64,000 bases of DNA from positions 4,854 through 68,853 of the forward strand of contig CALGYB010000009.1 of assembly GCA_937935075.1 (NCBI GenBank), in the 5' to 3' direction. The notes under the pieces were generated by a model. That model was not told the origin of the DNA, made no database searches, and saw only the letters and a list, made by a program, of their open reading frames with translations. The stretch comes from an uncultured Roseiflexus sp. Lineage in GTDB: Bacteria; Chloroflexota; Chloroflexia; Chloroflexales; Roseiflexaceae. The position numbers were made by a program, and so were the translations under genes. This document shows positions 2,396 to 45,319 of this stretch, piece after piece (within the stretch, counting starts at the first letter, position 1; every line of letters begins with the position of its first letter).

Positions 2396-2587
2396 GTTCC
2401 AATGCCCGCCTGTCTGACATCTGATACTAACGTGCGGTCAGTCAGACAAGATGTTCGAGCGCCTGGTTCGCGAGGCGCACCAGTCAACGCGCACCGGCAG
2501 TCCATGTTGTGGACACGTGACTGCGCAGTGGCATCAGCAACCCTGTGAGTATCAAAAACCATTATTGACTTCCCGGCACAAAGCGGT

Positions 2588-2888
2588 AACCACGAAGGTC
2601 ACAAAGGACATGCGCTTCATTTTCCCCTTCGTGCGCTTCGGGTCCCCGGCGGTTCAGCCTTTGTGCAAGCGACATCGGCGCTGTTAACCACGAAGGTCAC
2701 CAAGGGACACAAAGGACATGCGCTTCATTTTCCCCTTCTGCGCTTCGGGTCCCTGGCGGTTCAGCCTTTGTGCAAGCGACATCGGCGCTGTTAACCACGA
2801 AGGTCACCAAGGGACACAAAGGACATGCGCTTCATTTTCCCCTTCGTGCGCTTCGGGTCCCTGGCGGTTCAGCCGGTGTGCAAGCGAC
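2588..2888. repeat. Three tandem copies of a 98-107 bp palindromic intergenic element
   Basis: Units start at 2588, 2686 and 2793, each AACCACGAAGGTCAC...AAAGGACATGCGCTTCATTTTCCCCTTC(G)TGCGCTTCGGGTCCC(C/T)GGCGGTT; near-identical to one another. Confidence 0.9.
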
Positions 2889-3023
2889 TCGTTATTGTCC
2901 AAATGACCGCGATTTAGTATCAGTCCTCAATTCTCAAAACCTCGACAGAGGGATTGTTATTATACCACCTTCTCTCACAAAGAATTAACGCGCCCATCCA
3001 CCCCCGCACGCAGCATCACCGGG

Positions 3024-3029
3024 TATAAT
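3024..3029 (+). promoter_or_regulatory. Candidate -10 box for the S8 peptidase
   Basis: Perfect TATAAT 30 nt upstream of ATG 3060; no clear -35. Confidence 0.35.
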
Positions 3030-3059
3030 GCATCATGTGTCCAGAGAGGCATTGATTGC

Positions 3060-5132
3060 ATGTATCGCCATCTGCTCGCTCTCGTTGTTCTTGTTCTCAT
3101 ACTGGCGGCGCCGCTCGCTCCACCCGTCGCAGCCCGCGAGGCATCTGATGAACTAGTGGTGCGCCTCGCCGAAGGCTGGTCGCTGACCGCCGACGCGCGC
3201 GTTCGTGGCCCGTTCGCCGCACCCCTCGATGGCTTGCTGCGACGGTCTGGCGTCCGTCAAGCGCAGGCGCTCGGCGGCGACGCCTACCTGCTGCGCTTCG
3301 CTCGCTCATTTGAAAAGGGTGACCTGATCACGCGCCTGAACGATACGCCAGGCATTGTGTACGCGGAACCAAACCGTGAACGTCAGGCGCTGCGCGTTCC
3401 CGACGACGAAGGAGTCGACCGCCAGTGGTCACTGGCGGTCATTCAGGCATTCGATGCCTGGAACATCACGACGGGAAGCGAGATCATCATTGCTGTTCTC
3501 GACACCGGCGTGTCGCCGACACATCCCGATCTGAGCGGGCGCGTGCTGCCCGGCTTCGATTTTGTGAACAACGATGATGACCCTCGTGATGATGACGGGC
3601 ACGGAACATTCACCGCCGGCGTTGCGGCTGCGGCAGGCGACAACAGGATCGGCATCGCCGGCATCTGCTGGCGCTGTCGCATTCTGCCGGTCAAGGTGCT
3701 CAACCGGCGCGGTCGCGGCAATGACGCCGCTATCGCCGCCGGCATTCGTTTCGCGGTTGATCGCGGTGCGCGTATTATCAGTATGAGTTTTGGCGGACCG
3801 GACGACTCGCGGGTGTTACGCGAGGCGGTCGCGTATGCGCTGGAACGTGATGTGCTCCTGGTCGCTGCGTCGGGCAATGGTCAGACGGAGGGCAATCTAC
3901 CCAATTACCCTGCGGCCTATCCGGGAGTTCTGGCAGTTTCGGCGACCGGACCGAACGACGCGATCACCAGTTTTTCGACAACCGGCGATTTTGTTGCGCT
4001 GGCTGCGCCGGGCGCCGAGGTGTGGAGCACCCTGTGGCGACGCACAACCGGCGACACGTATGGTTTTGCCGATGGCACATCCGCCGCCTGCCCGCATGTG
4101 GCAGGCGCAGCGGCGCTTGTGTGGACGGTGCGCCCCGAATTGTCCGCCCGTCAGGTCGCCGAAGTCTTGATGCTCGGCGCCGATGATCGCGGCGCTCCCG
4201 GCAAAGACCCGGCGTATGGGTATGGACGCCTGAACCTTTTGCGCGCGGTGCAGGTTGCGCTGGAACCCGATCTGCTGAACCGTTCGCGGATCGAGGGAGT
4301 TGTGCGGAGCGTCGCCCCGGATCAAACCACGATTGTGCTGAGCGCCGGGCGGGAAACTCGCCCCGATACAGGGGGGTTCTACCGTTTCGACAATCTCCCT
4401 GCCGGTCAATATACGATCACTGCCCGCAGTCCTTCTGGCGAAACGCTGCAACAACAGGTGTCGTTAACGGGCACGGCGCTCAGCGTGGCACGCGTCGATT
4501 TTGCACTGGATAGCGCCAGCGCCGCCAGCACGGCATTTGCTCCGGTTGCACCGCAGCGCGGCGTCGTCTACTTCCCCGAAACCGGGCACACGCTACGCGG
4601 CGTCTTCCTCTCCTACTGGCGCACACACGGCGGGTTGCCGGTTTTCGGATACCCGATCAGTGAAGAATTCATCGAGCGCAGTGAAGACGGGCGCGAGGCG
4701 CTGGTGCAGTATTTCCAGCGACACCGGTTTGAACTCCGCCCTGAGAACCGCCCGCCGTACAACGTTCAGTTGAGTCGCATGGGCGATATCATTCTTCGCG
4801 CGCGCGGCGTAGACTGGTTCACTTTGCCAAAAGGAGCGCCCCGACAGGGATGCCGCTATTTCCCCGAAACCGGACACAGCCTCTGCGAGCCGTTCCTCAG
4901 CGCCTGGAGAGCCAGCGGCCTCGAGTTCGACCGCAGGCGCGGCAAGTCGGAAGCCGAGAACCTGGCGCTGTTCGGCATGCCAATCTCTGAACCGCAGATC
5001 GAAACGCTTCCTGACGGTCGCCCGATCCTGGTGCAGTGGTTCGAGCGCGCGCGCTTCGAGGATCATGGACCCGACGGAGTTCTGTTCGGGCTGCTTGGCG
5101 AAGAACTGGCGCGCCTTCGCGGATGGCGCTAA
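3060..5132 (+). CDS. Secreted S8 subtilase (thermitase-like) with a carboxypeptidase-regulatory-like beta domain and C-terminal YFPETGH repeats
   Basis: Signal peptide; catalytic triad motifs DTG, HGT and GTSAACPH; oxyanion ASGN; two YFPETGH(T/S)L...Q(Y/W)F(Q/E)R repeats. Confidence 0.93.
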   Translation: MYRHLLALVVLVLILAAPLAPPVAAREASDELVVRLAEGWSLTADARVRGPFAAPLDGLLRRSGVRQAQALGGDAYLLRFARSFEKGDLITRLNDTPGIVYAEPNRERQALRVPDDEGVDRQWSLAVIQAFDAWNITTGSEIIIAVLDTGVSPTHPDLSGRVLPGFDFVNNDDDPRDDDGHGTFTAGVAAAAGDNRIGIAGICWRCRILPVKVLNRRGRGNDAAIAAGIRFAVDRGARIISMSFGGPDDSRVLREAVAYALERDVLLVAASGNGQTEGNLPNYPAAYPGVLAVSATGPNDAITSFSTTGDFVALAAPGAEVWSTLWRRTTGDTYGFADGTSAACPHVAGAAALVWTVRPELSARQVAEVLMLGADDRGAPGKDPAYGYGRLNLLRAVQVALEPDLLNRSRIEGVVRSVAPDQTTIVLSAGRETRPDTGGFYRFDNLPAGQYTITARSPSGETLQQQVSLTGTALSVARVDFALDSASAASTAFAPVAPQRGVVYFPETGHTLRGVFLSYWRTHGGLPVFGYPISEEFIERSEDGREALVQYFQRHRFELRPENRPPYNVQLSRMGDIILRARGVDWFTLPKGAPRQGCRYFPETGHSLCEPFLSAWRASGLEFDRRRGKSEAENLALFGMPISEPQIETLPDGRPILVQWFERARFEDHGPDGVLFGLLGEELARLRGWR

Positions 5133-5140
5133 CAGGTGCG

Positions 5141-6286
5141 TCACCTGTCCTTTCCCAGTGCCAGAATACTTGCACCAAGCGCAGCGATCAGCGCTGCCGC
5201 CGCAAACAATGCGCCATAGCCGTAATCGCGGTAGATCACGCCGCCGACTGCATTGGCGAACGCAACCGCCACGCCAAAAACCGCCATGCCGAACAGACTC
5301 TGCGCCGTTGCTTCGAGTCCCGAAGGCGCCAGGCGCTGCGCCTCGACCACGCCTGCTGTCCAGAGCGATGCAAAACAGAGACCGTGGAGCAGCTGGATCG
5401 TCAGCGCCCATTCCGGCGTTGGCGCTGACCAGTAGAGCAGCATACGAATGGTGTAGGCAATGCCCGCAGTAACAATCAGCCAGCGCGCCCCCCACCGGCG
5501 AATGGCAAATGCCGAGAACGCCATTACCGGCAGTTCGCTGATGCTGGCAATCGTATACGCCAGGCCGATCTGGGCGCTGCTGGCGCCCAGGTCTTCCATG
5601 TAGAGTGAAAAGAAGCCATGCATCAACGCTCCGCTGCATCCGATGAACATTGCGCCGACGAGAAACCGCGCCCAGCGCCCGTCGCGCAGCAGCCGACGCG
5701 CCGCCTGCACCACATTGACCGTCACCACTTCGGCGCGCGGCATCGCCAGCGCCGCCAGCGCACCTGCGATCGGGTACACCCAGAAGATCAAGCCTAACCC
5801 CATGCGCTGCACTGCCCACCCAAAGGCAATCGTGCTCAGTCCCCAGCCAAGCGCCCCCCAGACGCGTTGTGATCCATAGCGCTCGCGCGCATTCCCAAGC
5901 GCTGCCAGCGTGGCGCTATCCGCCAGCGGCGCAACCGGCGCAGCAAACAGGCTCATGACGCTTACCAGCGCAAAAATCAACCAGAAATCGGTCGTCACAC
6001 CGAGCAGCAGCGCCGGCACAACTGCACCGGCGATGACCACCGGCAGCAACAGACGACGCAGGCGCAGCGCATCGGCAAACAATCCCCAAAGCGGGCTGGC
6101 GATCTGCAGGATGCCGCCCAACGACAGCAGCACCCCGATCTGCGCCAGATTCAGCCCGATGCTCCGATAATGCAGCGTGATGAACGGCATGAACGATCCC
6201 AGTGCGACGAACCAGCAAAAGTAGAATGCCTTCGGCGCAATCAACAGGCTCGTTGCGCGCGCCCGCAGCGAGACTCGCAGAGTCAT
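5141..6286 (-). CDS. MFS transporter (MFS_1-like/HcaT-type)
   Basis: About 12 hydrophobic helices. The + strand reads TCA at 5141 (TGA on -) and CAT at 6284-6286, so the gene is on the minus strand despite the + label in the ORF track. Confidence 0.9.
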   Translation of the reverse strand: MTLRVSLRARATSLLIAPKAFYFCWFVALGSFMPFITLHYRSIGLNLAQIGVLLSLGGILQIASPLWGLFADALRLRRLLLPVVIAGAVVPALLLGVTTDFWLIFALVSVMSLFAAPVAPLADSATLAALGNARERYGSQRVWGALGWGLSTIAFGWAVQRMGLGLIFWVYPIAGALAALAMPRAEVVTVNVVQAARRLLRDGRWARFLVGAMFIGCSGALMHGFFSLYMEDLGASSAQIGLAYTIASISELPVMAFSAFAIRRWGARWLIVTAGIAYTIRMLLYWSAPTPEWALTIQLLHGLCFASLWTAGVVEAQRLAPSGLEATAQSLFGMAVFGVAVAFANAVGGVIYRDYGYGALFAAAALIAALGASILALGKDR

Positions 6287-36070: not shown

Positions 36071-38893
36071 TTACCGGACGATCAGCGGCATCACTACCCG
36101 ATACAGCGGCGATGCCGCCGGCGCCTGCGCCTTTGCCGGACCATACCGGTTGATCTGTCCGGTCGTTTCGATCTCCTCAAGCCAGTATGTGTACGATGTG
36201 TCCGGTTGCGCAGTTACGTCACGCCATTCATACGCCGCGCCGCTGCCAGGGCTGCCGCGCGCGCGGATGAGCGCTGGCGTCACGAGGACCGCGTCGTCGC
36301 TGCGCCCGGTAGCGCTGCGCAGCAGACGGAAGCCGGCAGTATCGAGTTCCAGTATGGTCCCCCAACGAACAATCAGCGTTCCGCCTTCCCAGCCAGCCGT
36401 AAAGTACTCAAGCACAATCGCCGTAGGAATGCCCTCGAAGAACCCGAAGTCGTAGGTGTGGTTGTTCGTTCCGGCAGCCGCGTGATTATCATACGGAATG
36501 ACGAACACCGCGTTATTCCCGACCGTCACGCCATCGGAGTCGCGGCTGTCGCCATTCGGGCTGTCGTCGTTGTTTGCGAATGTCAGCGTCAGGTTGTTCA
36601 ACGGCTGTTGCTGATTCGGACCGGTAATGTTCGGAATGCGGATCTCGTATTCCGATGCGCCGCCTGGCGTGCCGGTGCGGGTGCGAATGCCGATCCCGCC
36701 GTCGTGGATGATATTGTCCTCGAGGTTGGCGTCCACCGGGTCTCTGCCACTGCGGAAGTAGTACGTCCCCTCGGCATCAGTTACCGCAACGCCAATCCGC
36801 TGACCATTGCGCCACAATTCAACCGTCACGCCGGGGATGGGCGGTTCATCCGGGTCCTGCACGCCATTGCGATTGGCATCGAGCCAGACGCGGTTCCCGA
36901 TTTCGATCGGCGCCTGATCGCAAAACGTTTCCAGGTCGCCAAGTCCTGCCGATTTGCCGAATGTCGCTCGCCGCACCCGCGTGCCTGGCGGTGAACCGAT
37001 CGGTTGATCCGTCCCGAAGATCGTATAGGCATTGATAAAGGCGCCGTTGGCGGCATTGAACCAGCGCAGACCGCCGGAGCGGACCTGACCTCCCTGTCCT
37101 GCCAGCAATGCATCATAAGCCGTGGTAATCACCTGGCGCTGACCATAATGCACCGCCATGCCGCCGATGGTCACTTCATCGTGGGCTGTGCCATACTCAT
37201 CGCGGTTGTAGAACTCGCCATTCCCCGGACCCTGCCGGTTGTTCGTCGAGCCGCCGACCAGACCGCCAGGGCATGCGCCAGCGTTTTCCAGGCTATAGCC
37301 GGAAGGCGCTGCAGGGTCAACGCATACGCGCAGCAGATCACCGGCAGCCACGCCATCGTACTCGCCTGTGTCAGTCGCAATCGTGCTATAGTTGCGGTTG
37401 CCCAATTGCATGCCCGCGCGATCATTGAACGCAACCAGGATAGCGCCATCGACATCGAAATCGATTGCGGTCAGCATCGGTTGCGGGTATATCGTCTGTC
37501 CAAACGGACCCTGACCGGGCAACGGCACAGGTGGTCCGATATCACTCCACTCGTTGATCCAGGGCAGCCAGGCGGCAGACACCCGATTGCCGGGACCCGC
37601 GTTCGAAGCCCGACCGCGCGGATAGTTGAGCGGGAATGAGAAGACCTCGGTGAAGTTCCCTGCCGCTCCATTCGGATCGTGGCGATAGATATGCGCTGTC
37701 AGATCGGTCGTGTCGATATTCTTCCCGGCGTAGGGGAGTTCTCCCGAACAGACGCCGCCGACGTACACCTGACCGGCATACGCCTTGACTGCCCACGGAC
37801 GAAACACGCCATCGCTGCACGCAGGCGCCGGCAGAGGATGGACAGTGATATCTGCGGCTGTCGGTGTAACTGGCGGAACGCCAATCCGAATCTCGAGCAG
37901 CGTTCGGGCGGTCAGGTTGACGACCCACAGCGTCTCTTCATCTTCCGAGAGCGAAATGCCGCCGATGCCAAGTTTGCCAATCGCGTCGAACGCTGCGGGA
38001 TCGCGGCTCGGATCGGCTTCGTTGATGGCCAGGTCGCCAGGACTGCGCGGATCAGGACCGACTGCGACGCCGGACGGATACCCGGCGGCATTCAAGTCGA
38101 TCAGCACAGTGGGAGCAACGACCCCATCGCGGTCAATACGGTAGATAGCGCCAATGCCGCCTGCGCCAAAACCGACGTGGCGTTTCACGACCGCCGAAGC
38201 CAGCAGTGTTCGGCTGGAACGCTGATAGGCCAGCCCCCACGTCGCACCAACCTGCTGACCGATCGCCAGATACACATTCTCGTCCGGACCGGTCGTTGTC
38301 GGCTCGAATGGGACCTGCACAATTGCAAACCGGCTCGCCGTCGAGCCGCCACCCTGCGGGTCGCCGTTCGTATAGCAACTGGTAACGAGGTCTGGTCCCT
38401 GCTGGCAATACTCTGCCGGATTGTGCAGCGCAAAATTGATATTCGACGAGTTGCCGTCCGGCACGAACTGAATGCTGGTGTTGTTGCTCGCGCCCTGGAC
38501 TGCGGGACGCATATACGCGGGCCAGCCGCTGAACTCGATGCGGTACGGTCCTGTGCCGCCGGCATTGAGGGTGTAACTCCCAATCGCCGGCGTATTCAGC
38601 GCGGTACACTCCGCTATCGGGTTTCCAGGACCGAGGCAGAGTGTGGCAAAGCTCACCGTAACACCCACTGCCGCGCCTGACGAGTCATAAGCAGTGACCG
38701 CAATGCCGCCGACGCCGGGTTCGTTTTCGTCACGCACACCATCACCATCGAAATCACGGAACACGTTGCCACTTATGACGCCAGCCGCCTGAACCCCGGC
38801 GGCCATTGGGAGAGCAGCCGCGATGAGCGCCATAATCAGCGCGCCGACCATCAGAGCCGGCGCGCGCCGTCCGGGGGGCAAAAAACGTTGCAT
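36071..38893 (-). CDS. Large secreted/surface protein with two SdrD-B-like domains, a central repeat domain and a C-terminal Ig-like domain
   Basis: Signal peptide; ISGNVFRDFDGDGVRDENEPGV and IGNRVWLDANRNGVQDPDEPPIPGVTVEL SdrD-B starts; NHTYDFGF; PTAIVLEYFTA domain. Confidence 0.85.
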   Translation of the reverse strand: MQRFLPPGRRAPALMVGALIMALIAAALPMAAGVQAAGVISGNVFRDFDGDGVRDENEPGVGGIAVTAYDSSGAAVGVTVSFATLCLGPGNPIAECTALNTPAIGSYTLNAGGTGPYRIEFSGWPAYMRPAVQGASNNTSIQFVPDGNSSNINFALHNPAEYCQQGPDLVTSCYTNGDPQGGGSTASRFAIVQVPFEPTTTGPDENVYLAIGQQVGATWGLAYQRSSRTLLASAVVKRHVGFGAGGIGAIYRIDRDGVVAPTVLIDLNAAGYPSGVAVGPDPRSPGDLAINEADPSRDPAAFDAIGKLGIGGISLSEDEETLWVVNLTARTLLEIRIGVPPVTPTAADITVHPLPAPACSDGVFRPWAVKAYAGQVYVGGVCSGELPYAGKNIDTTDLTAHIYRHDPNGAAGNFTEVFSFPLNYPRGRASNAGPGNRVSAAWLPWINEWSDIGPPVPLPGQGPFGQTIYPQPMLTAIDFDVDGAILVAFNDRAGMQLGNRNYSTIATDTGEYDGVAAGDLLRVCVDPAAPSGYSLENAGACPGGLVGGSTNNRQGPGNGEFYNRDEYGTAHDEVTIGGMAVHYGQRQVITTAYDALLAGQGGQVRSGGLRWFNAANGAFINAYTIFGTDQPIGSPPGTRVRRATFGKSAGLGDLETFCDQAPIEIGNRVWLDANRNGVQDPDEPPIPGVTVELWRNGQRIGVAVTDAEGTYYFRSGRDPVDANLEDNIIHDGGIGIRTRTGTPGGASEYEIRIPNITGPNQQQPLNNLTLTFANNDDSPNGDSRDSDGVTVGNNAVFVIPYDNHAAAGTNNHTYDFGFFEGIPTAIVLEYFTAGWEGGTLIVRWGTILELDTAGFRLLRSATGRSDDAVLVTPALIRARGSPGSGAAYEWRDVTAQPDTSYTYWLEEIETTGQINRYGPAKAQAPAASPLYRVVMPLIVR

Positions 38894-38912
38894 GGTTCAT
38901 CCTCCTGTGCGT

Positions 38913-40007
38913 TTACCGGGAGCGCGCGCGAACAGCCGGGGTTCGCGCATCAAATGGGAACGGATCGGCGAATGCGGGGTTGCGTAGCGACTCTTCGTCG
39001 GTCAGCGCCTCGAGAAATGCGATCAGGTCGTGGCGTTCATCGTCGCTCAACACAAACCCGGCGATCAGCGGGTGACGCGCGGCGATGCGCTCTGGTTCAG
39101 CGCCGCCGCCCTGACGCCCGCCTGATTCGTAGAAGCGAAGAACTGCATCGAGCGTGGGCAGACTTCCGTCGTGCATATAGGGCGCCGTCACCGCCACGTT
39201 CCGCAACGGCGGCACGCGGAACCGGTAGGCATCCGCCAGGTTCCCCGTCTGCTCCGCCAGACCGCGATCCGGGCTGCGACCGGCGCCTGTGGCGACATAT
39301 GTCAGATCAGACCAGCGTGGCGGCGTGGCGCGCTCCGGCGGCGCAATGTCAACATGGCAATGACCGCACGCCAGCCCTGGCGAAAAGAAGAGCGCCAGAC
39401 CGCGTTTCGCGCTGTCGCTCAGCGCCGTGTCCTCGCCGTGGTAGACATATCGGTCGTAAGGCGTGTTACGCGCAGCCAGCGAACGAACAAAGGCTGCCAG
39501 CGCGTCGGTAATGCGTTGCCAGGTCCATGGATCGGCATCCGCAGGAAACGCCGCAGCAAATTGATGAAGATACGCCGGATCGGTTCGTAGCCGGTCAATC
39601 GCCATGGTTTCGTATCCTGCAACGCCCATCTCTGGCGGGTCGGCGGTAAAAAGTGCGCGCGCTATTTGTTGCTCCAGCCGCCGAATATCGGCATTCGCCC
39701 AGGTCAACACAGATAGTTCACCGCTGTTGAACAGCCCTGGCGTATTCCGCCGCAACGGGACGCCGGTCGCGCCGGTTGGAACAACCCGTCCGTCACTGAA
39801 CCCCAGTTCCTGGCGATGACACGTAGCGCACGCAATCTGCCCGTTGGCTGACAGGCGCTGGTCATAAAACAACCGGCGACCCAATTCGATCATCGCCTGC
39901 GGCGACTTGCCGGGCGCTAGCGTTTCGGCAGCAGGAACAAACCCTCGCACCACGGTGACGAGCGCCACAATGAATAGGGCGATGCCCAAGAGAAAAGCCA
40001 GGCGCAT
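38913..40007 (-). CDS. Di-heme cytochrome c peroxidase superfamily enzyme, MbnH/MauG-like
   Basis: LGRRLFYDQRLS, CATCH, LTWAN, LEQQ...F...P.EMG, CGHCH, FRVP.LRNVAVTAPYMHDGS; N-terminal signal/TM. Confidence 0.9.
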   Translation of the reverse strand: MRLAFLLGIALFIVALVTVVRGFVPAAETLAPGKSPQAMIELGRRLFYDQRLSANGQIACATCHRQELGFSDGRVVPTGATGVPLRRNTPGLFNSGELSVLTWANADIRRLEQQIARALFTADPPEMGVAGYETMAIDRLRTDPAYLHQFAAAFPADADPWTWQRITDALAAFVRSLAARNTPYDRYVYHGEDTALSDSAKRGLALFFSPGLACGHCHVDIAPPERATPPRWSDLTYVATGAGRSPDRGLAEQTGNLADAYRFRVPPLRNVAVTAPYMHDGSLPTLDAVLRFYESGGRQGGGAEPERIAARHPLIAGFVLSDDERHDLIAFLEALTDEESLRNPAFADPFPFDARTPAVRARSR

Positions 40008-40048
40008 TGCAGCCTTTCTGAAAGTGCTTGAACCTTACATTGTAGTGA

Positions 40049-40077
40049 GCGTGGGCTGAGCCTGTCGAAGCCCACGC
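40049..40077. repeat. REP-like hairpin, TGAGCCTGTCGAA loop (reverse orientation)
   Basis: GCGTGGGC, TGAGCCTGTCGAA, GCCCACGC. Confidence 0.8.
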
Positions 40078-40349
40078 CAATCACCACGTCGTTTTGCCCA
40101 AAAAGAGCGCCGCCACCCCTCGGCGTCTGTAAAACGCCGCTGATTGCTTTAGCCATGCGCCAGCGTTGCTACGACGTATGTGCATTTATGTATGGCTGGT
40201 CGTACTATCCTATCACGTGGAACGAGACAGATCAACTGTCAAAATCGTCAAAAAAGCGCTGCGTGTCTGACAGTTTTGTTCCTTATTCCGAAACGCTTGT
40301 AGGAAGATCAATCTAAACCCGGACACCCACGCTTGCACCTGTGGAACGG

Positions 40350-40384
40350 TTGGCGTTGGCTGAGCCTGTCGAAGCCACCGCCGA
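40350..40384. repeat. REP-like hairpin, TGAGCCTGTCGAA loop, imperfect stem
   Basis: TTGGCGTTGGC, TGAGCCTGTCGAA, GCCACCGCCGA. Confidence 0.7.
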
Positions 40385-40466
40385 TCACGAGATTGTCTCA
40401 TATCCGGTTGATCTTCCTGTTAGGGTATACTTGTTGCACAGCAGTTTCAGCATGAAAGGCACACCT

Positions 40467-40865
40467 ATGCGACTCGAACACATCGCCCTGAACGTTGCGG
40501 ACCCCGATGCCATGGCGCAGTGGTACGTCACGCATCTGGGGATGCACATTGTGCGTCATATTCCGACGCCCAACGCAATCTATTTTCTGTCCGACTCGGC
40601 GCAGCGCAGCGTGATCGAGATCTACCGCAACCCTGCCGCTCCCATTCCCGACTACGCCTCCCTGTCGCCGCTAGCGCTGCACCTGGCATTCAACACAGAT
40701 GACATGGAAGGCGATATTGCGCGGTTGGTCGCTGCGGGCGCAACCCACGTCTCACCCATCGAAACGACGCCCTCCAACGACCGGCTGACATTCCTGCGCG
40801 ATCCGTGGCACGTTGCGATTCAACTGGCGCAGCGGAATACGCCGCTCCTGCAACCGGCGCCGTAA
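40467..40865 (+). CDS. VOC/glyoxalase family protein
   Basis: MRLEHIALNV.D..AMAQWY...LG, IEIY, HLAF..DD, FLRDPW. Confidence 0.9.
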   Translation: MRLEHIALNVADPDAMAQWYVTHLGMHIVRHIPTPNAIYFLSDSAQRSVIEIYRNPAAPIPDYASLSPLALHLAFNTDDMEGDIARLVAAGATHVSPIETTPSNDRLTFLRDPWHVAIQLAQRNTPLLQPAP

Positions 40866-40889: not shown

Positions 40890-41656
40890 ATGCCGCGACG
40901 ACAACCGCAGAAACGACACCGGCTGCCGCCGGTCGAAGGCTTTGCGCGCCGGGCGCTGGCACTGCGCGCGATGCTCAACGACGACAGCGCCAGCGCTGGC
41001 GATCAGGCGCTCAAATTGCTCGAAGAGTATCTCGAACGCCTGGCGTATGGCTACGGCTATGTCGGCGACGGTAGTCTGGGGCGCTACGCAAACTTTCTCC
41101 GGGGACGAAATGCGCTCGATGAGGATATTATCGAGCGTATCGACGCCTACACCCAGGTGCGCAACTGTCTGGCGCATTCGTATGGGTTGCAGACTTCGCC
41201 TGACCTTGCCGCTGAACTGGTCGAGTTCATCGAGTTGCTCCTCAAGCGTGGCGCTCCGACAGCGGAAGATTTGATGACCCACGCCGTTCGCACCGTCGAT
41301 TTGGGGGCGTCGCTGGCGCATGTACGCGACCTGATGATCCGCGACGGCTATGGGCGGTTGCCGGTACTGCGCGATGATCGCCGGATAGTCGGATTGCTGA
41401 CGGAGCGCGACCTGGTTGCCGCCCAGGCGCTTGCTGAGCGGGCGCATCGGCGTTTCGACGAACTGACAGTTGCCGATGTGCTGCCGCCGGACGTCGTGAT
41501 CGCGTTGTGTGCGTGGCGCCCGACACGTCGCGCGAGGAGGTGGCGGAAGCGTTGACGCGCGGCGGAGTGATTGCCTGTCTGGTGACGCCGGACGGTTCGT
41601 CCGATGCCGCGCTGCTCGGCATCATCACCCATGCAGATTTGCTTTATCGGATGTAG
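40890..41656 (+). pseudogene. HEPN-like + tandem CBS domain gene with an apparent 1-nt deletion near 41498
   Basis: Frame 1 gives RNCLAH and CBS1 (DLMT...GYGRLPVL..GLLTERDL). The -1 frame from 41498 reads DRVVCVAPDTSREEVAEALTRGGVIACLVTPDG...LGIITHADLLYRM*, a complete CBS2. Span 767 nt = 3n+2. Confidence 0.8.
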
Positions 41657-42701
41657 GGACGCTTTCAGGGAAGGGAACCCAGGAGTCGCGCTCGGCGTCG
41701 TAGCCGTATCGCAGCACGACCTGTTGCTGCTCGGAGACGGCGCGCAGGTTGAACGCAAACGGCACGACGAAGAGGGTCATGTTCGTCTGATCGAAACTGA
41801 TCCGCCGCACCCGCGGTTCGGCGAAATGCGCCAGACGCTCGTCGATTTGCAGGTCGATCCGGAACTCGCCGGTGGCGTGGCCTTCGGCGTCCAGCGCCAC
41901 TGAGCCGACTTCGGCGCTGCGCGCCAGCCCGACGTAGAGCCGCTTCCCGGCGCGCCCCTGAAACACTGCCAGCCCGATGGCATCGATACCGATCATTTCA
42001 TCGCTGATCGCCCCGCTCGCCAGATCAACCCGCACGATCCGCCCCTGTTCCGCCTGCCGCGTCGAACCGGCGACGGTACTGACATACAGCGCGTGGGTAT
42101 CACAGTCGTAGGTCATCCCCAGGATACCGAACGGATTGTCGCTCGAACCTGCCACGCCCGGCAGCGTGACAAACGGTTGCAATTCCGCAGTCTCGCTATC
42201 GATCCGATAGACGACGTTCAGGCTGCCGGGCGGATTGTCACTGACAGCGGTGCGCGGCACAGCCGCAGTATAGACATGCCCGTCACGGTCGATGACGAAC
42301 GGTCCCAGCGTGCCGGCGTCGTCCCACGACGGTTCCTGGTGAATGTCGCGCTGCGCCGGGTCGGCAGTGACCGGCACGCGCCCATCGAAGATGACCAGCC
42401 CTTTGTACATGCGCTCACTGGTGCTGATGCCGAGCCGGTCGGCATACCCCAGCCGCGCGGCGAAACGCGGGATGCCCCGGCAGCCGGTGACGCCGCCGAT
42501 GACGGCTGGTGAGCGTGTGGTCGATGGCGCGATCGGCACGGCGTTCTCTGCGCTGCGCGTCACCCACCATCCGACACTGGCGATCGCCAGCAATGCGACA
42601 ACCCCTGCGACAAGCAACAGAAAGCCGCGTCCGGCGGAAGGCGGCGAGGCGGCGGGGCGCCTCGTTCCAGATGTGGCAGTGCGGCGGCGTTTCCCCATCA
42701 T
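41625..42701 (-). CDS. Membrane-anchored extracellular protein, probable beta-propeller
   Basis: Basic N-terminus plus TM helix; beta-rich repeats (GPFVIDRDGHVY, GMTYDCDTHALYVST, GLAVF); ATGA overlap with the upstream gene. Confidence 0.7.
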   Translation of the reverse strand: MMGKRRRTATSGTRRPAASPPSAGRGFLLLVAGVVALLAIASVGWWVTRSAENAVPIAPSTTRSPAVIGGVTGCRGIPRFAARLGYADRLGISTSERMYKGLVIFDGRVPVTADPAQRDIHQEPSWDDAGTLGPFVIDRDGHVYTAAVPRTAVSDNPPGSLNVVYRIDSETAELQPFVTLPGVAGSSDNPFGILGMTYDCDTHALYVSTVAGSTRQAEQGRIVRVDLASGAISDEMIGIDAIGLAVFQGRAGKRLYVGLARSAEVGSVALDAEGHATGEFRIDLQIDERLAHFAEPRVRRISFDQTNMTLFVVPFAFNLRAVSEQQQVVLRYGYDAERDSWVPFPESVPTSDKANLHG

Positions 42702-44488
42702 CCGCCTCCCAACGGCACAAACAGCGGTCCGGCGGCGCAGGGCCAGATGCGCGGCGTGAAGATGCCTTCGCTCAGAACAGAATCCGCCCAGCAGTATTCG
42801 GCGCCGGGCGTATCCGAGTTTTTCAGTTGCGGCACGTACCAGAGGACGAGCGGCGCCCGCTTGAGCGACTCCGGCGGCGCCAGGAAACGCTCCGGTCCCT
42901 GGCGTTCATCGGTATTGCAGCAGTCGCCGAGCGTCGGCAGGTCGCTTTCGCCCTCATCGCGGTCGGCATCGCCGCGCACGGCGTACAGGTAGGCGTTGTC
43001 GCCGCGCCCGCCATCGCCGAACTGCCCTCGCCCCGGCGCAATGTACCATCCGCGCCGGGCGACGTTCACAATCCGATATTGAAATCCCTCCGGCGTGTAC
43101 GGCGTCGCATCGCGTTGCACCTGCCATCCCTCGGTGGTCCAGTCGCGCCAGCCGGCGCCATCCCATTCGGAAAAGGTGTACTGGTCGTCTGCCAGAGCAA
43201 TGCGCATTACCGGACGATACATCCCATCGTTGCCGCAGCCACGCCCTTCGCTCACGAACACGACGCGAAAACTGCCGTCCTGGTAGAACTCATAGCGCTG
43301 GCGATACGCATAGTTGCACGGCGTGGGCCAGAACTCGCTGCGGAAACGTTGCACCAGCGCGAACCCCGCAACGCCGCCTGGGGAACGAATCTCTTCGACC
43401 TGCGGACCATCCCACGCGACGACCGCCGCCGCCGAAAATGCCGGGCATCCCAGCGCATCGCTGTAGCCGAACCCTTCCTGCTGCGAATAACTGATGTGGA
43501 CATCGACCAGTTTGGCGCTGCGCAACACCGGACTGTCGTTGAAGCGCACATCTTCGATGCGCAGCCCGTCGGTGCTGGTCAGCAGATAGCGCAACGACCA
43601 GCCATCGCGCTGCAGGTCGGTCTTTTGATCGCAGAAGCGCGCCGTCACCACATCGTCCTGGAGGCGTTGTTCGGTGACCGGACGACGACTCGACGCGCCC
43701 AGGTCGGTCCAGCGCAGCCCGATAATCGTATAGTCGACCAGATCGACGATCACCCACAGCGCGCGGTCGCCCCAGACGAAGATCGGCGCGGTGCAGAGGT
43801 GGCGCGAGCGTTCGCAGGCGGTCGCCTGGAACTGCACCTTCATCTGCGGCTGCTGGATCATGCGCTCGTCTGGCGGCAGATCGAGTTCTTCGCGCACCTC
43901 AGGGGCTGCCAGCGCAATCTGCGCCGCGAGATCGAGCAGGTGGCGCGGCACGACCGTCGGCTGCGTGTCGTCGAGCGTCGCCACGCGATAGACGCGCTGC
44001 GCCTGCGGCTCGACGATCACAATCACCGTGCGGTTGCGTGCATAGTCGTAGAGTTCGACGCGATAGCAGGCGCGGTTGCGGCACGCATCACCCGCCAGGG
44101 CGTCATCCGCCGGACCGAGCGGATAGATGCCGAACACCTCAGCGCGCACCAGGCGACCGTCGGCGGTGGAAAGCGCCTGGCGCACCCGCTCGTCGGCGAC
44201 GGCGAGTTGCCATGCCGCCTGTTGTGCCGCATCGAGACCTTCGAGCAGCATTAGCGGTTCACCGCGCCCAAGCGCCTGTTCGACCTGCGCCAGGCGCGCT
44301 GCCAGGAGCGGCGCCGCGTCCGGCGGCGGCGTGGTACGTGGCGCCAGGCGTCCCGGATCGGCGGGCGGCGTGATTGGACGGACGACCGGCGTGCGGACGT
44401 TCGTAGATGTGGGTGAAGGCGGCGTAGCGGGCTGGCTGCACGCCGCGAGAAGAACAATAATGAAGAGTGCAGGAAGGGATTGTCTCAT
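42698..44488 (-). CDS. Lipoprotein with a copper-amine-oxidase-like enzyme domain
   Basis: Lipobox LLAAC after MRQSLPALFIIV; GWSL...DGLRIEDVRF, CNYAY...FYQDGSF and LVLWY segments parallel the CAO catalytic domain. The start could be further upstream. Confidence 0.6.
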   Translation of the reverse strand: MRQSLPALFIIVLLAACSQPATPPSPTSTNVRTPVVRPITPPADPGRLAPRTTPPPDAAPLLAARLAQVEQALGRGEPLMLLEGLDAAQQAAWQLAVADERVRQALSTADGRLVRAEVFGIYPLGPADDALAGDACRNRACYRVELYDYARNRTVIVIVEPQAQRVYRVATLDDTQPTVVPRHLLDLAAQIALAAPEVREELDLPPDERMIQQPQMKVQFQATACERSRHLCTAPIFVWGDRALWVIVDLVDYTIIGLRWTDLGASSRRPVTEQRLQDDVVTARFCDQKTDLQRDGWSLRYLLTSTDGLRIEDVRFNDSPVLRSAKLVDVHISYSQQEGFGYSDALGCPAFSAAAVVAWDGPQVEEIRSPGGVAGFALVQRFRSEFWPTPCNYAYRQRYEFYQDGSFRVVFVSEGRGCGNDGMYRPVMRIALADDQYTFSEWDGAGWRDWTTEGWQVQRDATPYTPEGFQYRIVNVARRGWYIAPGRGQFGDGGRGDNAYLYAVRGDADRDEGESDLPTLGDCCNTDERQGPERFLAPPESLKRAPLVLWYVPQLKNSDTPGAEYCWADSVLSEGIFTPRIWPCAAGPLFVPLGGG

Positions 44489-45319
44489 CAGGAAACCGTC
44501 AGCATGCACACCTGGCGTCGCGTGTTCCATGGTACCACGAGTTGTGGCGGGGTGGAGCACGGAAGGCTCATTGAACGTCGGGTAGGCGAAGGCAATGCCT
44601 TCGCCTGCCCAATTGACTTCTTCGGACACGCTCACAGATGGAGCGTTGTGCAGGTGAGAGGTGGGATGGACCAGAACGCCGCTGCGCCTGTACGCACATC
44701 GCAACGCTGTTCGCCTCTCGTCTCTCTCCCCGGAGAAGAGAATGATAACCACATTTATACAATCTTGATAAAAGATTATTCATCTTATCAATATGTAAAA
44801 CGAATACAGAATGTTTTTCTTGCAAAAACGGCAAAAATATCCCTGGTTCTCTGACATTATGTTCATTAATTCAGGAGTCGAGCGTATACAAAACGCATAC
44901 AAAGGCGCATAAACGCACCACGTATCGCTACAGCGCTCCTTATTTTGACCGGGATTTCACACATCGATGACTTCAGATGACAAAAACTTCACGATTGGAG
45001 TGAGATGCCGCAAGAGGTTCTTTATCTTCTCCTGCTACAGTGATACACAAAGACCTACAACGCTCTTCCCACATCGAGCACGACATCATTCCCTCTCTCG
45101 GTACATCTATCACATACCAGCCAGGCATCCAGCGCAGGCGATTGTGCGACTAAAGGATCGACAAGGGATCGTGCGATCCTGGGGGTTACTGTTGTCTGGT
45201 TTATGCACTATTCCCTCGTCACTGCGCAGAACGGGGCAAGGGCATCATGCTGACGTTCACCCGTCAGTAATATGTGATGCCAGCCCTGATAGCAGCGTCG
45301 AGTTGGGAGGAGAGCGGCA

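Follow-up and report, generated by a model that had tools for sequence, protein, structure and literature searches.

We have analysed a 64,000-nt stretch of DNA from an uncultured Roseiflexus sp. (GenBank assembly GCA_937935075.1, contig CALGYB010000009.1, positions 4,854 to 68,853), hereafter the window, in which the gene of a di-heme enzyme related to MauG and MbnH ends shortly before the gene of a surface protein. A second gene pair, here called A and B, lies 1.6 kb upstream of the di-heme gene on the same strand, at 41625-44488. A encodes a lipoprotein with a predicted copper amine oxidase fold, and B a second propeller-like candidate anchored in the membrane; all four proteins carry export or anchor signals. 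The di-heme and surface-protein pair of the window is one face of a four-gene extracytoplasmic module whose gene linkage is firm. The features of the locus are collected in Table 1.

Table 1. Genes, sites and motifs of the four-gene locus, in window positions
Feature	Position	Strand	Remarks
Surface protein gene (P0002, 940 aa)	36071-38893	minus	Pfam SdrD_B, 79.8 bits, two stretches
Trp cluster AAWLPWINEW (surface protein residues 440-449)	37547-37576	minus	W442/W445 invariant, W449 not
Spacer between di-heme and surface protein genes	38894-38912	minus	19 bp; GGAGG Shine-Dalgarno
Di-heme enzyme gene (P0001, 364 aa)	38913-40007	minus	N-terminal signal/anchor; PF03150 (CCP_MauG), 138.9 bits
LRFY with Tyr293, position of the axial ligand of the six-coordinate haem	39129-39140	minus	placed by alignment only
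Second haem-binding motif CGHCH (residues 214-218)	39354-39368	minus	sequence motif
TWAN (residues 102-105), inter-haem Trp of the superfamily	39693-39704	minus	aligned with LTWAN of 6e1c
First haem-binding motif CATCH (residues 60-64)	39816-39830	minus	sequence motif
Promoter-like site 5' of the di-heme gene	40039-40068	minus	10/12 consensus positions; pattern match only
Glyoxalase/VOC gene	40341-40865	plus	between di-heme and A-B
CBS-domain gene	40890-41555	plus	between di-heme and A-B
Protein B gene (358 aa, membrane-anchored)	41625-42701	minus	start overlaps the A stop by 4 bp (ATGA)
Protein A gene (596 aa, lipobox LLAAC)	42698-44488	minus	predicted copper amine oxidase fold; start is M89 of a 684-aa frame
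CNYAY of A (residues 391-395)	43304-43318	minus	fits topaquinone consensus N-Y-D/E-Y

The original prediction for this locus described a MauG/MbnH-like enzyme whose gene ends 19 bp before that of a 940-aa SdrD-B surface protein, with no MbnP or methylamine dehydrogenase (MADH) gene nearby, and proposed the surface protein as a new class of substrate. The layout was confirmed, as were all of the motifs that it quoted, including PYMHDG, which corresponds to residues 276-281 of the di-heme enzyme. Because a promoter-like site lies upstream of the di-heme gene and a pattern search found no terminator-like site in the 19-bp spacer (the nearest is inside the di-heme gene, at 39056-39073), the two genes look like one transcription unit. 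The di-heme enzyme is 78% identical to an R. castenholzii protein that is annotated as a cytochrome c peroxidase.

Two haem-binding motifs and the Trp that lies between the haems in related structures were located in the di-heme sequence, and a role for this inter-haem Trp has been described in the superfamily (PMC11892367). Met-His ligation is typical of canonical peroxidases, and Tyr-His ligation of MauG-type enzymes that reach a bis-Fe(IV) state (PMC6405878, PMC11951088). Tyr293 of the window enzyme (..AVLRFY) was aligned by HMMER with a Tyr of the di-heme enzyme 6e1c (..VIDIY) and with a Met of 2c1u, the bacterial cytochrome c peroxidase (bCcP) of Paracoccus pantotrophus (..AVKIM). The terminal Met of this last segment is taken here to be the Met haem ligand. 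On the strength of the Met-to-Tyr change in the ligand column, the window enzyme is, by its sequence, a MauG-type enzyme with a predicted Tyr-ligated second haem and not a canonical peroxidase. Its best solved relative is 6e1c (3e-67), presumably the MbnH from Methylosinus trichosporium; the matches to canonical peroxidases (~1e-30) and to MauG (~1e-17) are weaker.

Comparison with the models of the MbnH, MauG and bCcP families, which the original prediction had named as the ones to separate, placed MbnH closest and left all three scores under their cut-offs. The MbnH family TIGR04039 ranked first in NCBIfam with 326.6 bits (cut-off 362.85), the MauG model TIGR03791 gave 178.1 bits (cut-off 443.85) and the peroxidase model NF040606 gave 27.9 bits (cut-off 150). 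Enzymes of the Roseiflexus-type clade score 300-357 bits with TIGR04039, and canonical MbnH about 489-520. In a tree of 123 homologues, the Roseiflexus-type enzymes and a small sister group were split with 100% support from 87 canonical MbnH rows; the di-heme of genome G010 belongs to the sister group, on a long branch. The window enzyme thus lies outside the canonical, MbnP-paired MbnH clade. Many canonical MbnH of Chloroflexota have an N-terminal extension of ~200 aa (545-567 aa in total), for example the gene at 7339-9042 of L032 (genome G024), P0038, P0041 and P0048, and some of these extended proteins are fused to a PCuAC copper-chaperone domain (PF04314).

MbnP (TIGR04052) has no match in the source genome, which is 99.95% complete. 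In the relative G024, whose canonical MbnH scores 518 bits, the same search did recover a true MbnP (285 bits), immediately upstream of that gene, and an MbnP hidden elsewhere in the genome as the partner is ruled out by the zero matches together with this working control. A second CCP_MauG (PF03150) gene is likewise missing, the di-heme gene of the window being the sole one in the genome. The MADH light chain (PF02975) was without a match in the genome, in a search whose control was silent in every genome. The statement that no known partner is encoded nearby therefore holds for MbnP and, within the reach of that silent control, for MADH; it overlooked the conserved candidate pair A-B 1.6 kb upstream.

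Protein A belongs to a family with at least 400 relatives in GTDB species genomes and more than 1000 protein clusters, of which those named by their source are all 'hypothetical'; neither Pfam nor NCBIfam has a model that captures it. The longest open reading frame (ORF) of A spans 42698-44752 on the minus strand (684 aa, GTG start) and holds 88 codons beyond the conserved start. Since all homologues align from the Met that precedes the lipobox, the true gene is probably the shorter one in Table 1. The sole sequence match was to Pfam PF01179, at 26.1 bits just under the cut-off of 27 and over profile positions 17-64 only, and a profile search against sequences of the PDB gave no match. A structure model of A (AlphaFold2 with 88 homologues; predicted local distance difference test score, pLDDT, 86.1) was compared using Foldseek, and the 50 best of the matches listed were all copper amine oxidases, aligned over the whole chain (best E 3e-16, probability 1.0), with TM-scores of only ~0.33 because the domains are oriented differently.

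Within A, the topaquinone-like motif CNYAY is strongly conserved: in 88 homologues C391, Y393 and Y395 never vary, and N392 is kept in at least 90%. The local stretch NYAYRQRYEFYQDGSF of A resembles NYDYIFDWIFHENGTI of E. coli TynA around the topaquinone Tyr, and A and the topaquinone strand share the motif N-Y-x-Y-x3-[YW]-x-F-x2-[DN]-G. An hhalign comparison of the A family with TynA gave a weak N-terminal match only (probability 4.5%) and none over the topaquinone region. Across 80-88 homologues, H230 and H331 are the sole His residues to reach 90% conservation, and an HxH motif is missing. With just two His kept across the family a three-His copper site cannot be conserved, and A thus appears from its sequence to lack the site that self-processing to topaquinone needs. 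The family also carries ~12 conserved Cys. Protein B matches the profile of the YncE propeller 3vgz weakly (E 2.4e-4) and is probably a YncE-like beta-propeller; the A and B genes are translationally coupled.

To place these genes in context, species-representative genomes were searched with the alignment of A; 513 stretches were matched, 406 of them encode relatives, and 80 loci were fetched. The relatives come from Chloroflexota, Acidobacteriota, Bacteroidota, Burkholderiales, Binatia and others, and some oddly labelled bins may be binning errors. Among the 80 loci, B adjoins A in 69, a di-heme gene in 25, and a homologue of the surface-protein head (at least 500 residues aligned) in 24. Among the 36 with full flanks the numbers are 32, 13 and 13, with both of the last two in 7. 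A and B are the constant core, and the di-heme enzyme and the surface protein each occur in about a third of the loci. Other recurrent gene families were not found around A-B, the extra clusters being shadow ORFs inside the four genes. One metagenomic contig (L036) has two copies of the B gene (602-1651 and 3189-4274) beside one A gene.

The position of the di-heme gene follows A. In the clade of the window enzyme, A adjoins the di-heme gene in 8 of the 9 lineages in which that side can be read (Roseiflexus, G017, L027, L028, L036, L037, L038 and G010), and the di-heme gene goes with A-B rather than with the surface protein in L036, L037, L038, L048, L049, L053, G010 and 14 Bacteroidota loci. 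Four arrangements were found overall, and in the di-heme-bearing loci fetched with A, outside the insertion-type layout of the window, the di-heme gene always touches A or B. It stands head to head with A, 140-160 bp apart, in Chloroflexaceae and Chloroflexales. The order is di-heme, A, B in 14 of the 18 Bacteroidota loci, in most of which the di-heme gene ends within, or very close to, the start of A (an overlap of 19-37 bp in several). The di-heme gene follows B in Binatia and Burkholderiales (A, B, di-heme) and A in G010 (B, A, di-heme). Given the short head-to-head spacing in other lineages, the glyoxalase and CBS-domain genes that separate the di-heme from A-B in the window look like a lineage-specific insertion into the module. 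The glyoxalase gene occupies this place in Roseiflexus and G017, and a CBS remnant was seen in one further locus only (L045).

The A-adjacent di-hemes come from at least 3 lineages, and in a joint tree all 32 of them fell outside the clade of canonical MbnH (86 rows). With TIGR04039, the A-adjacent enzymes of Bacteroidota score 369-391 bits, which passes the cut-off, and those of Binatia and Burkholderiales, which are far more divergent, 124-166 bits. The neighbour of the Bacteroidota copies (L088, L093, L098 and others) is A, no MbnP gene was seen adjoining them, and the automatic annotation of this clade as 'MbnH' is probably misleading. The differing gene orders, the differing di-heme lineages and the overlapping reading frames together are strong evidence for a functional tie of the di-heme enzyme to A-B.

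The surface protein consists of a signal peptide, an SdrD_B sandwich, a six-bladed beta-propeller head, a further SdrD_B sandwich, and a C-terminal sandwich with a hydrophobic tail. Its AlphaFold2 model (pLDDT 89.6) was matched by Foldseek to paraoxonase, strictosidine synthase, YVTN propellers and SdrD; Pfam has no model for the head. The head family is broad, with at least 196 matches in many phyla and with stalks of SdrD_B repeats, and its C-terminal anchor differs by phylum (Por_Secre_tail, IPTL-CTERM, MYXO-CTERM, or a Chloroflexota-specific domain). We regard P0002 as a true protein of the cell surface. The C-terminal sandwich and tail (..YRVVMPLIVR; 36071-36450, minus strand, residues ~820-940) also end many giant proteins (the longest of 5198 aa) encoded by the source genome and by related Chloroflexales, and are a candidate Chloroflexota-specific sorting or anchoring domain that replaces the Por_Secre_tail or IPTL-CTERM of other phyla. 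Two surface-protein homologues lie near A-B in Acidobacteriota L060, L066 and L080, both downstream in L060 and L080 and flanking in L066, and giant SdrD_B proteins stand on both sides of A-B in L062, L065 and L084.

The Trp cluster of the head, in which the original prediction saw a possible site of oxidation, proved to be conserved in part. W442 and W445 are invariant in 25 diverse head homologues and at least 90% conserved in 78, including those from loci and genomes without a di-heme enzyme. Few other head residues are invariant, and both lie in a stretch that is confidently modelled with almost no regular secondary structure (DSSP). The orthologues of G001, G003 and G017 have lost W449 together with the stretch NEWSDIGPP by deletion; the di-heme gene adjoins in G001 and G017, and the contig of G003 starts inside the surface-protein gene, so that its neighbour on that side cannot be read. 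As the WxxW pair is invariant with or without the di-heme and the third Trp is lost from di-heme-paired orthologues, the cluster is a conserved feature of the propeller-head fold that does not track the di-heme enzyme, and its use as a mark of the pairing is ruled out.

The pairing of the di-heme and surface-protein genes, which was also expected to be conserved, is kept in every Roseiflexus genome with readable contigs (G001, G002 and G004-G009). The whole neighbourhood is syntenic there, including PBP1A, glucosaminidase, glyoxalase and Wzz, and only the more distant cases therefore carry weight. The pair occurs in a second genus, G017, at 68% (di-heme) and 55% (surface protein) identity, and on contigs L027, L028 and L047, where di-heme identity is 56-68% and the order is again di-heme, then surface protein. 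Beyond these, the di-heme follows A-B instead. Di-hemes of the same clade are found without the surface protein in L029, L036, L038, L039 and G010, and in Chloroflexaceae the di-heme gene stays with A, the surface protein adjoining in L047 and being absent from the flanks in L048 and L049. Homologues of the surface protein also occur in genomes where the di-heme query matched nothing at E <= 1e-10 (G035 and the four of g18), and all 4 head homologues sampled on long contigs (L120-L123) have no di-heme or A-B within 9 kb. In L037, a 931-aa Peptidase_C25 (gingipain-like; 2513-5308) replaces the surface protein after a di-heme of the sister clade, with A on the other side.

From the gene linkage, folds and motifs described above we infer a sequence of chemical steps. 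It is hypothesized that the four genes form a conserved module acting outside the cytoplasm, with the di-heme enzyme as its facultative oxidant. With H2O2, the di-heme would be converted to the bis-Fe(IV) state and could then oxidise an aromatic residue of a partner through long-range electron transfer. The partner best backed by gene linkage is A, in which the di-heme enzyme could install, or speed up the formation of, a Tyr/Trp-derived cofactor or a metal site that A would be unable to make by copper self-processing of its own. The surface protein, with its propeller head on an SdrD_B stalk, would probably be the target or the anchor of the mature A-B system, and may share an operon with the di-heme in Roseiflexus by happenstance. 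A is ranked first as the substrate because the di-heme position follows it, because it resembles an amine oxidase without the means of making its own cofactor, and because the two known enzymes of the MauG type each modify a neighbouring protein: MauG oxidises pre-MADH and MbnH oxidises MbnP. We favour the explanation in which A is the protein whose aromatic residue is oxidised by the di-heme enzyme and the surface protein is a facultative fourth member, at a confidence a little short of an even chance.

Several observations weigh against it. Two thirds of the A-B loci have no di-heme gene, and A-B is present in four complete g18 genomes in which nothing matched the di-heme query (E <= 1e-10), so that no CCP_MauG-type gene was detected there; the gap between B and the surface protein in g18 holds a trypsin-like protease, a GDPD and two unknowns, and no substitute oxidant. 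Since A-B without a di-heme is common, the di-heme enzyme is no obligatory maturation factor for A and can be only an accessory or alternative route. The A proteins that have a di-heme next door show no residue difference from those that have none, and around the L029 member of the clade both A and the surface protein are missing. The correspondence of Y393 with the topaquinone Tyr is probable, drawing on the local sequence motif and the overall fold.

Oxidation of A competes with other explanations of the locus, among them that of the original prediction, in which the surface protein itself is the substrate and its head residues W442, W445 and W449 are oxidised or cross-linked at the cell surface. 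The operon-like organization in the window, with its 19-bp gap, Shine-Dalgarno sequence, upstream promoter-like site and a gap in which no terminator-like site was found, would suit such a pairing, as would the gene order kept in Roseiflexus, G017, L027, L028 and L047 and the position of W442 and W445 among the few invariant head residues, in a confidently modelled stretch. Full-flank A loci have a surface homologue in 7 of 13 cases with a di-heme versus 6 of 23 without, a contrast that is weak and confounded by relatedness. However, no locus was seen that has a di-heme and the surface protein yet lacks A, whereas di-heme and A-B occur with no head in reach in L036, L038, L048, L049, L053, G010 and about nine Bacteroidota loci. 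The invariance of the Trp pair is no weaker in genomes that lack a di-heme (G035, g18), W449 is lost from the paired orthologues of G001 and G017, and the four head homologues sampled on long contigs stand apart from both di-heme and A-B. We consider the surface protein a possible but rather unlikely substrate, the di-heme linkage favouring A. A somewhat better prospect, although still unlikely, is an oxidase-peroxidase couple, in which A makes H2O2 and the di-heme enzyme scavenges it or uses it to drive cross-linking of the envelope, without any maturation of A. Copper amine oxidases yield H2O2, and the genome has no other CCP_MauG peroxidase. A di-heme that is facultative and has been recruited from several lineages and into several positions fits an accessory better than an essential maturase, and BthA, a Tyr-ligated di-heme enzyme, turns H2O2 over catalytically (PMC6405878). 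Against such a couple, A has no conserved copper site and its oxidase activity is only presumed, Tyr ligation and the MbnH-like sequence favour protein oxidation over scavenging, and the gene overlap with A in Bacteroidota suggests that the two act as stoichiometric partners.

The di-heme enzyme might also have no specific partner and be a general peroxidase of the periplasm, with neighbours that are only a legacy of inherited gene order. The complete synteny of the Roseiflexus neighbourhood does make conservation within the genus uninformative, and the L029 di-heme stands alone, but adjacency to A-B recurs across phyla in four gene orders and with several di-heme lineages, which shared ancestry cannot explain, and the Met-to-Tyr change of the ligand speaks against a canonical peroxidase; this explanation is very improbable. 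A slightly greater, still slim chance is left to readings that we have not formulated. An extension of the oxidation of A, which we hold to be improbable though bolder in what it would mean, is that the copper-less amine-oxidase-fold protein A receives a Tyr/Trp quinone from the di-heme enzyme, and that A-B then oxidises or cross-links the propeller-headed surface protein. If so, A would be a third partner class for MauG-type enzymes after MADH and MbnP, and the module a bacterial counterpart of lysyl-oxidase-type maturation of the extracellular matrix, present in five or more phyla.

To our knowledge, pre-MADH and MbnP are the only two known substrates of MauG-type di-haem enzymes, and most of the superfamily is orphan. 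The four genes look like an undescribed cell-envelope oxidation module in which a MauG/MbnH-type di-heme enzyme has a new partner class; no description of A, B, the surface-protein head or their pairing was found in Pfam, NCBIfam or a limited search of the literature. Distinct MbnH-like lineages have, in five phyla, as their conserved neighbour an unnamed lipoprotein of copper amine oxidase fold that keeps the topaquinone motif and not the copper site, and the module is a testable candidate for a new protein-derived cofactor or cell-envelope oxidation system. A likely mis-annotation is corrected as well, that of the Bacteroidota copies that pass the MbnH threshold with no MbnP adjoining.

Among known systems, the SdrD/MSCRAMM adhesins of staphylococci share with the surface protein a stalk of SdrD_B (Cna-B-like) sandwiches. 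The surface protein differs from them in having no A-domain, no Ser-Asp repeats and no LPXTG, its head is a six-bladed propeller, and it scores 31.7 bits with the SdrD-type adhesin model NF012181, whose cut-off is 2500. BthA of Burkholderia (6nx0) is comparable to P0001 as a MauG-type di-heme enzyme without the MauG substrate, and shows that orphan Tyr-ligated di-hemes can have other roles, catalytic H2O2 turnover included (PMC6405878). Its similarity to P0001 is only distant (E 1e-9), its gene neighbourhood is another one, and it lacks the inter-haem Trp (PMC6405878) that P0001 keeps.

The copper amine oxidases (PF01179; E. coli TynA and AGAO of A. globiformis) resemble A in whole-chain fold and in the local motif of the topaquinone strand. 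They differ in that A is only ~12% identical to them, scores just under the Pfam threshold and has no canonical copper site, and in that A has a lipobox, ~12 conserved Cys and an adjoining propeller gene. MauG and pre-MADH, the system of tryptophan tryptophylquinone (TTQ) biogenesis, share with the window enzyme the superfamily and the predicted Tyr-His haem, and the logic that we propose is the same, a di-heme enzyme installing a quinone-type cofactor in a neighbouring enzyme unable to do so alone. The window enzyme reaches 178 of the 443.85 bits of TIGR03791, the MADH light chain was not found (in the search with the silent control), and the candidate substrate A has another fold, in which the target would be a Tyr/Trp of the topaquinone-like motif. 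MbnH turns a Trp of the copper-binding MbnP into kynurenine. This pair differs from the Roseiflexus module in that the window di-heme is below the family cut-off, outside the canonical clade and in a genome without MbnP, and in that the neighbour of Roseiflexus-type enzymes is a ~600-aa lipoprotein of copper amine oxidase fold with a propeller protein rather than a ~260-aa WxW protein; the partnership with A-B is also facultative, about one third of A-B loci having a di-heme. MbnH is nevertheless the closest family by sequence, both in TIGR04039 score and in the match to 6e1c, and the two systems have in common the pair of CxxCH motifs, the inter-haem Trp of TWAN, a Tyr in the distal-ligand column (a ligand assigned by alignment only), and a di-heme gene placed beside exported proteins rich in conserved aromatics.

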